A DNA stretch of 64,000 nt from Pseudomonas phage Pa_AttikonH10. The stretch lies in sequence record PQ741806.1; one strand, given 5' to 3'. The translations under genes were made by a program, and so were the position numbers. Numbering within the stretch: position 1 is the first letter of the stretch; every line of letters begins with the position of its first letter. The notes under the pieces were generated by a model. It worked only from the letters and a program-made list of their open reading frames with translations. It searched no databases and had not been told where the DNA came from. Positions 23,843-24,499 of this stretch are shown piece by piece.

Positions 23843-24499
23843 TTAACATACAATTTCATTATCAGAAAATAGTTTATTATATTCTTTTAGTGCATCCCCA
23901 CCAACCATAGTACACCTGCCATAGAGAACAGATATAGCCAGATCTTTAATAGCGGGGTGACAATTATTTAACTTACTGATTAGTTGAGCTTTCTCAGTCA
24001 GATACAGTTCAGCAAAATCAGGCTTATCATTAACAATCGACCACATGTTTGAAATGGAATCTAGTAACTTAAGAGATTGACCACTCCATGAAATGCGAGA
24101 AAGTCTTTCATGTTGTAAACTAATCCTAGTTTTACGATTACCTTCGTAAGTTACATTTGTTAGTTCAGTTACTAAATTAACAACAGGGATTGAGAATAGT
24201 TTAGTTAGATCAGAAGCAGTTACAGCAGTATCCTCAATTACATCATGTAACCATGCTGCTTTATAAGCAGCGTGAGATAGGTCGAATAATTGCGCCATCT
24301 CAGCTACTTGTAATAAATGATGCCAGTAAGGTTTTCCTGAACCATCTCGCAATTGACCAACAGCAGTATGTGCCGCAATGGCATATGATGCAGCCATTGC
24401 ATTACCCGCATTGGAATATTTGCCATTACCTAGATGGTTAGTTAAGAGAATATTCTCTTTCCCTCCTTCTAGAATATCGATAATTTCATTCATTAGCAT
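23843..24499 (-). CDS. HD-domain (p)ppGpp hydrolase (small alarmone hydrolase; MESH1/SpoT-HD type)
   Basis: SGKPYWHHLLQVAEMA...AAWLHDVIEDT...LVTELTNV matches the SpoT/MESH1 HD core (PY..H.L.VA, LHDvvEDT). 218 aa. No synthetase domain. Confidence 0.7.
   Translation of the reverse strand: MLMNEIIDILEGGKENILLTNHLGNGKYSNAGNAMAASYAIAAHTAVGQLRDGSGKPYWHHLLQVAEMAQLFDLSHAAYKAAWLHDVIEDTAVTASDLTKLFSIPVVNLVTELTNVTYEGNRKTRISLQHERLSRISWSGQSLKLLDSISNMWSIVNDKPDFAELYLTEKAQLISKLNNCHPAIKDLAISVLYGRCTMVGGDALKEYNKLFSDNEIVC

Follow-up and report, generated by a model that had tools for sequence, protein, structure and literature searches.

gp246 of phiKZ-like Pseudomonas phages, a predicted stand-alone RelA/SpoT-type HD hydrolase

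The gp246 gene and its HD domain

The 64,000-nucleotide stretch of Pseudomonas phage Pa_AttikonH10 analyzed here (PQ741806.1; the whole stretch is called the window, and position 1 is its first letter) carries on its minus strand the gene PHIKZ246, whose product, gp246, is predicted to be a stand-alone hydrolase of the RelA/SpoT homologue (RSH) HD family. The 5-kb region around this open reading frame (ORF), positions 22000-27000, has 100% DNA identity to Pseudomonas phage KTN4 and is ~99% identical to phiKZ, in which it lies in reverse orientation. The protein encoded in the window is 100% identical to phiKZ PHIKZ246 (NP_803812). An earlier note on this DNA had placed an ORF at 23843-24499 and read it as a small alarmone hydrolase (SAH); the span proved exact, and the strand, which the note had left unstated, is minus. 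The gene and the parts of its protein are given below, where invariance refers to an alignment of 21 homologues and confidence to the predicted local distance difference test score (pLDDT) of the structural model.

23843..24499, minus strand: PHIKZ246 (gp246), 218 aa plus stop, ATG start (ORF list); stand-alone RelA/SpoT-type HD hydrolase, as predicted
24395..24499, minus strand: N-terminal extension, residues 1-35, specific to the phiKZ clade (21-homologue alignment; pLDDT 52-83)
24020..24394, minus strand: HD hydrolase core, residues 36-160 (motif alignment; pLDDT >90)
24347-24349, minus strand: R51, the arginine of the GQxR motif (conserved Arg column of the alignment; context GQLR)
24317-24319, minus strand: H61, invariant
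24242-24247, minus strand: H85-D86, invariant
24230-24235, minus strand: E89-D90, invariant
24059-24061, minus strand: D147, invariant
24047-24049, minus strand: N151 (in KLLDSISNM), invariant

Profile searches place gp246 with the RelA/SpoT hydrolases. Pfam HD_4 (PF13328, the RelA/SpoT-type HD domain) matches with an E value of 6.7e-12 and 45.8 bits, against a gathering cut-off of 27.2, whereas the generic Pfam HD model (PF01966) gives a marginal match (E 2e-4). The NCBIfam model TIGR00691 (spoT_relA) matches with E 3e-16 over model positions 2-119 of 687, which is the N-terminal hydrolase part only, and PHROG 990, 'metal-dependent phosphohydrolase', matches at 6.5e-56. In a sequence search of the PDB the top match was Drosophila Mesh1 (9e-9), followed by Lmo0812, catalytic fragments of Rel, RelA and SpoT, and human MESH1; weaker matches were the (p)ppApp hydrolase Aph1 and the Pseudomonas aeruginosa SAH. 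These results bear out the match to the SpoT/MESH1 HD core that the earlier note had proposed, since the HD_4, TIGR00691 and PDB matches are far above chance, and both strings quoted in it, PYWHHLLQVAEMA and LHDVIEDT, are present in the protein. Its statement that a synthetase domain is absent also holds: the 218 aa carry a single HD domain, HD_4 and HD are the only Pfam matches, and neither a synthetase nor a TGS/ACT regulatory region is found. No Pfam or NCBIfam match was obtained to deoxynucleoside triphosphate triphosphohydrolase (dNTPase), HD-GYP or other phosphodiesterase families, and none to the PADLOC defence models.

The catalytic apparatus of this family is complete in gp246. The motif strings are P57-YWHHLLQVAEMA-A69 and L84-HDVIEDT-T91, and the positions H44, Y58, H61, H85, D86, E89, D90, K144, D147, and N151 are invariant across the 21 homologues. 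The core residues align to the same motifs in Drosophila Mesh1 (PDB sequence alignment). The metal-binding tetrad H...HD...D is formed by H61, H85, D86, and D147, and the HDxxED catalytic dyad (E89 and D90), the GQxR arginine, and the DxxxN asparagine are all intact. By this alignment R51 is the predicted base/phosphate contact and N151 the predicted ribose contact, with H61, H85, D86, and D147 assigned as metal ligands and E89 and D90 as catalytic residues. The N-terminal extension is missing from every aligned homologue (n=21) except P0002, and in a pairwise alignment it is largely kept in an 80%-identical homologue.

An AlphaFold2 model built from the 21-homologue alignment is all-helical, with 13 helices, a mean pLDDT of 90 and a predicted template modeling (TM) score of 0.88; only the first ~30 residues and the last four are of low confidence. 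When the model was compared with the PDB by Foldseek, the best 50 matches were all RSH hydrolases. Human and Drosophila MESH1 gave target-normalized TM scores of 0.83-0.84 with a root-mean-square deviation of ~2-3 A, and the P. aeruginosa SAH gave target TM scores of 0.79-0.83. Corynebacterium RelH, the Leptospira SAH, full-length SpoT, (p)ppGpp-bound Rel N-terminal domains, and Aph1 are also among these 50, which include no dNTPase or phosphodiesterase. A placement in a dNTPase or phosphodiesterase subfamily, named beforehand in the earlier note as the finding that would speak against an alarmone hydrolase, was therefore seen neither in the profiles nor in the fold search. Profiles, motifs, predicted fold, and closest relatives agree in identifying gp246 as a stand-alone RelA/SpoT-type HD hydrolase, that is, a predicted SAH.

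A HMMER scan of 1.84 billion cluster representatives returned 7644 relatives of gp246 at E<=1e-3. Among the matches listed (150 of the 7644) the proteins are overwhelmingly stand-alone and 165-235 aa long, and only two representatives, at 80% and 49% identity, are near relatives. Phage-genome homologues with 28-46% identity are found in the jumbo phages PhiPA3, 201phi2-1, PS119XW, D6, Viktualia, Vibrio pVa-21, and Xanthomonas XacN1, and in further jumbo phages of Erwinia, Klebsiella, and Serratia. Smaller phages with homologues infect Rhizobium, Agrobacterium, Acidovorax, and Salmonella. In the Serratia phages Moabite, BUCT660, and Kodama the homologue aligns to residues 35-102 of gp246 only (31% coverage, 46% identity), and a truncation, a split, or strong divergence of the C-terminal half of this gene may account for this. 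A megablast search of the gp246 gene against E. coli genomes gave no match and was uninformative.

The closest tested relative found is the PaSpo SAH of Salmonella phage SSU5, one of the phage-genome homologues, with 34% identity over 145 aa (71.6 bits). A second phage protein, PVP-SE1 gp220, which is presumably the PbcSpo SAH, aligns over 89 aa of the N-terminal half only (42 bits); it is annotated 'metal-dependent phosphohydrolase', and its HD_4 score is sub-threshold (20.8 bits vs 27.2). The scan of PVP-SE1 covered 96 kb, made up of the first 50 kb and the last third: the first 50 kb hold no HD_4 gene, and the gp220 candidate lies in the last third. By these pairwise scores gp246 appears PaSpo-like, a likeness short of formal subfamily assignment.

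Database names for this protein vary. RefSeq calls NP_803812 a "metal-dependent phosphohydrolase", in many records the same protein is a "hypothetical protein", and in phage PA02 (AP019418.1, 1501-2157) the gp246-identical protein is labeled "GTP pyrophosphokinase". The homologues in Vibrio pVa-21, Xanthomonas XacN1, and Serratia phages bear this last label as well. Because gp246 has no synthetase domain, the label is a misannotation, propagated from matches to long RelA/SpoT proteins.

Transcription signals and neighboring genes

The features around gp246 are as follows. Promoter-type sites were scored with a position weight matrix (PWM) built from eight intergenic TATATTAC sites of the window.

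23795..23824, minus strand: intrinsic terminator of the gp246 transcript, with an 8-bp GC-rich stem, TTCG loop, and T-rich tail (terminator scan)
23753..23794, minus strand: phiKZ early-promoter-type motif …TTTTGTATTTAAAC…TATATTACA (PWM 40.6 bits), promoter of PHIKZ246.1 and later genes
23723..23460, minus strand: PHIKZ246.1, starting 30 nt past the preceding motif
24530..24964, minus strand: PHIKZ245 (gp245), 144 aa, PHROG 839, T4 Y16D-like, separated from gp246 by a 30-nt gap
24994..25013, minus strand: intrinsic terminator after gp244 (terminator scan), upstream boundary of the putative gp245-gp246 unit
25015-25371, minus strand: gp244, the phiKZ capsid decoration protein (PF25621, E 1.5e-50)
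25429-26325, minus strand: PHIKZ243, 298 aa
26825..26866, minus strand: nearest early-promoter-type motif upstream of gp246 (PWM 45.6), with gp242-gp244 and the terminator at 24994-25013 intervening
27309-27326, both strands: terminator-like hairpin ACCTCCC-TTCG-GGGAGGT with T-rich tails on each side
6340-6381, 17404-17445, 20089-20130, 23753-23794, 26825-26866, 27257-27298, 35553-35594, 42296-42337, 43362-43403, and 51079-51120, all minus strand: the ten early-promoter-type sites found by PWM

The gp246 terminator begins 19 nt past the stop codon and has the form ACCCTCCC-TTCG-GGGAGGGT followed by a T-rich tail (23824..23805, ACCCTCCCTTCGGGGAGGGT + TTTATTTATC). Its RNA fold has a free energy of -16.3 kcal/mol (z -2.8), and it fits the motif reported for 61 phiKZ terminators (PMC10914365). 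The scan, the fold, and the published motif accordingly confirm that the gene has its own terminator, as the earlier note had stated. The note had also assigned gp246 its own class 1 promoter at 23759..23788. This motif is genuine, with TATATTAC at 23757-23764 on the minus strand, but, lying 3' of both the stop codon and the terminator of gp246, it is the promoter of the next unit. Nor is the description of an early-type operon supported, as gp246 lacks a private early promoter; the gene just upstream of the gp245-gp246 pair is the capsid decoration gene gp244.

The ten minus-strand sites scored 30-46 bits in the PWM scan, against a background of at most 8. They share a 42-nt layout in which a T-rich block is followed by GTATT or GCATT, TTTAAA, and then TATATTACA. 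The sites at 42296 and 43362 have variant -10 boxes, TACATTAT and TATATCAC, and were detected by the PWM only. On the minus strand between 23843 and 26825 the scan found no early-promoter motif. The sequence TATATTAG, 30 nt before the gp246 ATG, was considered as a private early promoter and rejected, as its PWM score is -6.8 while real sites score at least 30.

The gap between gp245 and gp246 contains no terminator by terminator scan and no early promoter by PWM, and the two genes probably form a bicistron between two terminators. Transcripts of this unit would start at the early promoter 26825-26866 and read through, or would start at a middle or late promoter that is unrecognizable in sequence. 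The middle and late promoters of phiKZ are too degenerate to predict, consisting of a weak AT-rich box or of TATG at the start site (PMC7598289).

The T4_Y16D domain (PF26092) was found on the gp245 homologue of a syntenic contig. A tblastn search with the C-terminal ~100 residues of gp245 found relatives in 1388 phage records, mostly T4-like. The annotations of this family conflict: 'anti-restriction nuclease', 'putative tRNA processing enzyme', and 'C-N hydrolase superfamily' all occur. A functional coupling of gp245 and gp246 by conserved synteny was considered and rejected, the T4-like phages that make up most carriers of gp245 relatives being absent from the gp246 matches. In Serratia phage BUCT660 a distance of 33 kb separates the homologues of gp245 and gp246. 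The neighbors of the next-nearest gp246 homologue (P0003) are DNA and RNA ligases, and none of the genes close to it is annotated T4_Y16D; on both grounds the pairing is not conserved.

Further upstream, the gp242-gp243-gp244 unit has the early-type promoter 26825-26866 at its head and a terminator at its end, an arrangement unexpected for a virion protein, and gp244 may have additional late promoters. The Pfam matches of PHIKZ243 all fall below the cut-offs; they concern a FANCM pseudonuclease domain and the restriction endonuclease ScaI (E 0.003-0.008), and may be a faint nuclease-fold signal or chance. The hairpin at 27309-27326, upstream of gp241, may terminate transcription in both directions.

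Predicted function and rival explanations

The 80%-identical homologue of gp246 comes from a syntenic phiKZ-like metagenomic contig that carries gp244-gp245-gp246. Between the two genes dN/dS (the ratio of nonsynonymous to synonymous substitution rates) is 0.066, a whole-gene value with dS saturated, which indicates strong purifying selection on gp246 as a whole gene. In transposon insertion sequencing (TnSeq) of phiKZ, one library held 12 independent insertions in PHIKZ246 (12,320 reads) and a second library 28 (17,531 reads), figures on par with established non-essential genes, and essential genes received none (PMC12676376). The gene lies within the long non-essential arm orf184-orf304, for which the TnSeq authors speculated on host-interaction or 'anti-defence loci' (PMC12676376). 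The arm also holds Tad1 (gp184) and the Juk activator gp241. Conserved yet dispensable in PAO1, gp246 bears the mark of an accessory or conditional function.

From the family assignment, gp246 is probably a single-domain, metal-dependent 3'-pyrophosphohydrolase of the RSH HD family that acts as a cytoplasmic alarmone hydrolase with an accessory role. As in other members of the family, it would remove the 3'-pyrophosphate from (p)ppGpp, and probably from (p)ppApp, in the host cytoplasm in a Mn2+-dependent reaction, with GDP/GTP and ADP/ATP as the products. A broad or guanosine-capable specificity like that of PaSAH (the P. aeruginosa SAH) and MESH1 appears most likely, because gp246 has an arginine in place of the aspartate that marks Aph1. 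Translation GTPases and purine synthesis are targets of (p)ppGpp, and gp246 would blunt the alarmone-driven shutdown of translation and purine synthesis. An alternative benefit would be to block abortive-infection defences of the alarmone or toxic small alarmone synthetase (toxSAS) type and intoxication by (p)ppApp. In either case gp246 may matter in some hosts or conditions only. The earlier note had proposed that the enzyme keeps host rRNA synthesis running, which is a weak argument for phiKZ, as its genes are transcribed by its own two RNA polymerases, independently of the host RNA polymerase (PMC7598289). With polymerases of its own, the phage would draw its benefit from gp246 through translation GTPases, through purine synthesis and nucleotide pools, or through counter-defence.

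Several points weigh against an alarmone hydrolase that supports infection. The substrates of SAHs range from (p)ppGpp together with (p)ppApp (PaSAH and MESH1) through (p)ppApp only (SAHMex and Aph1) to NADPH (MESH1) and pyrophosphorylated tRNA, and with so wide a range the preference of gp246 is unreadable from its sequence. For the phage genes the classical target of ppGpp plays no part, as phiKZ does not use the host RNA polymerase. Despite gp246, phiKZ could not multiply on deep-dormant P. aeruginosa, and Paride was the only phage that continued to replicate once serine hydroxamate had been added (PMC10761892); strong starvation physiology is therefore not overcome by gp246. On PAO1 grown in LB at 37 C, phiKZ can do without the gene (PMC12676376), and very early action is unsupported because gp246 lacks a private early promoter. 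Within the protein, the 35-residue N-terminal extension is unexplained, and D52 occupies the position after the GQxR arginine where most relatives have Lys or Arg. Finally, the literature search found no study of gp246 itself, whether a biochemical or a genetic test, and its 'gp246' matches concern other phages.

It is possible, rather than likely, that gp246 has become a conditionally essential counter-defence enzyme of phiKZ-like phages, one that would erase the products of RSH toxins in toxin-carrying P. aeruginosa and owe to its N-terminal extension a specificity or localization foreign to cellular SAHs. Its targets would then be (p)ppApp from Tas1- or FaRel-like enzymes, or 3'-pyrophosphorylated tRNA from CapRel- or PhRel-like systems.

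An explanation close to this one holds that gp246 mainly strips the 3'-pyrophosphate that the toxSAS toxins CapRel, PhRel, PhRel2, and FaRel2 place on tRNA CCA ends, and is thus dedicated to counter-defence rather than being an alarmone regulator. tRNA that FaRel2 has pyrophosphorylated can be aminoacylated again once the SAHs MESH1 or ATfaRel have acted on it (bioRxiv 10.1101/2021.04.30.441581). SSU5 PaSpo neutralized 5 of the 5 toxSAS toxins tested by Jimmy et al. 2020, CapRel, PhRel, PhRel2, and FaRel2 among them (PMC7229694), and it was used to tame CapRel-SJ46 during purification (PMC9712102). Such a role also agrees with the dispensability of gp246 in PAO1 and with its location in the arm for which anti-defence loci were speculated. 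However, in the SAHs tested, tRNA activity coexists with nucleotide hydrolysis, no sequence feature specific to tRNA binding was identified in gp246, and there is no sign of a toxSAS that restricts phiKZ in its hosts, though no direct search was made. An enzyme dedicated to tRNA is therefore considered unlikely.

Quite improbable is a metabolic role, in which gp246 would act as a 3'-phosphatase or pyrophosphatase on non-alarmone nucleotides (NADPH to NADH, 3'-phosphoadenosine 5'-phosphosulfate (PAPS), and others) and remodel host cofactor pools. The top structural matches are indeed human MESH1, first the apo form (3nr1) and then the PAPS-bound and NADPH-bound forms (9chy and 5vxa), and an orphan SAH from a bacterium (Xanthomonas) is called metabolically promiscuous in the title of its report (PMC9765508). 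Yet alarmone-bound Rel/SpoT domains and bacterial SAHs fit the gp246 model almost equally well, the nearest sequences are phage and bacterial SAH-type proteins rather than metazoan MESH1, and NADPH phosphatase activity has so far been observed for metazoans.

A place in a non-alarmone HD subfamily, such as a dNTPase, an HD-GYP or cyclic-nucleotide phosphodiesterase, or a tRNA CCA-repair HD protein, would make gp246 an enzyme that degrades dNTPs or cyclic signals. HD-GYP enzymes do occur in jumbo phages (PMC7824862), and the weak generic HD match could be read in this sense; but HD_4 scores far above that model, the RSH-specific HDxxED signature and KLxDxxxN motif are intact, and the best 50 structural matches and PADLOC offer nothing of these kinds, so that this placement is very improbable. 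It is just as hard to credit that gp246 has no catalytic activity and works as a binder, either as an alarmone sponge or an inhibitor of a host RSH enzyme: the clade-specific extension and the sponge-type anti-defence protein known in phiKZ (Tad1, gp184) could suggest it, but invariant metal-binding and catalytic residues under purifying selection would be unexpected in a pure binder.

Phage SAHs are already known, have been shown to neutralize toxic alarmone synthetases, and have been predicted in jumbo phages; the assignment of gp246 therefore mostly improves annotation. Its importance would rise if the alarmone hydrolase predicted here were a conditional anti-defence factor, as phiKZ is a therapy-relevant model jumbo phage. 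The phiKZ nucleus shields the phage DNA, but the translation machinery and the nucleotide pools, which are what alarmone and toxSAS systems attack, lie unshielded in the cytoplasm. Transposon mutants in orf246 exist, which makes the anti-defence question directly testable, and a host-specific defect of such mutants, tied to toxSAS or (p)ppApp systems, would raise the importance of the gene.

Comparison with known alarmone hydrolases

Stand-alone phage SAHs are already noted in RSH classifications and are routinely annotated in new Pseudomonas phages (PMC12846349), and gp246 is an uncharacterized member of this known kind. The SSU5 SAH (PaSpo; SSU5_099, AFL47026) is likewise a stand-alone phage HD_4 protein, of 213 aa compared with 218 aa, and has the same catalytic motifs. 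Both proteins have a C-terminal D-P-x-F-x-x-x-Y-L-x-E-K segment past the HD core. Unlike the SSU5 protein, gp246 has the 35-residue N-terminal extension and another C-terminal tail, and its source is a nucleus-forming jumbo phage that is virulent.

P. aeruginosa, the host, has a single-domain SAH of its own, PaSAH (PDB 6yvc/6z3n/6z3o). PaSAH resembles gp246 in fold (TM 0.79-0.83) and motifs, and it degrades both (p)ppGpp and (p)ppApp, as given by a title cited in PMC12846349 and by PMC10083569. In contrast to gp246, however, PaSAH is encoded by the bacterium itself and contributes to biofilm formation and to protection against the Tas1 effector; the two share ~22% identity, and the sequence match is weak (E 0.03-0.07). 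MESH1/Mesh1 (PDB 3nr1, 3nqw, and 5vxa) is the best match in sequence (9e-9) and in structure, with the same H..HD..D metal site and ED dyad. Its substrates include (p)ppGpp, (p)ppApp, and pyrophosphorylated tRNA. MESH1 differs from gp246 in being eukaryotic and in having NADPH argued as its physiological substrate, and the identity is 23-24%.

Aph1, from a Bacteroides caccae prophage (PDB 7smg), is also a phage-associated HD hydrolase of the same superfamily, and it provides immunity against (p)ppApp synthetase toxins. Unlike gp246 it is shorter, having lost two helices, and tetrameric, and it has the signature D24/R96/D116/R119/K133/Y134 (PMC10083569). Its match to gp246 is weak (E 0.008, TM 0.71). 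In a register taken from the motifs and not from superposition, N151 of gp246 corresponds to Aph1 N114, and the positions of Aph1 D24, D116, and R119 are occupied by R51 (the position of R43 in TtRel), W153, and V156. The (p)ppApp-only signature was defined for Aph1 by Ahmad et al., in whose work D24R together with R119A opened the enzyme to ppGpp (PMC10083569). With R51 at the D24 position and no equivalents of D116 and R119, gp246 is not of the Aph1 type.

The 'HD-alarmone PDease' of group 2/3 jumbo phages, described by Iyer et al. 2021, is of the same predicted class as gp246, from the same kind of phage, and has the same proposed role in counter-signaling (PMC7824862). That survey is purely computational, and in the part of it available the example is BBI90576.1 of another phage, gp246 being unnamed there. 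Against the characterized SAHs as a whole, gp246 is set apart by its 35-residue N-terminal extension, by D52 after the GQxR arginine, and by its jumbo-phage context.

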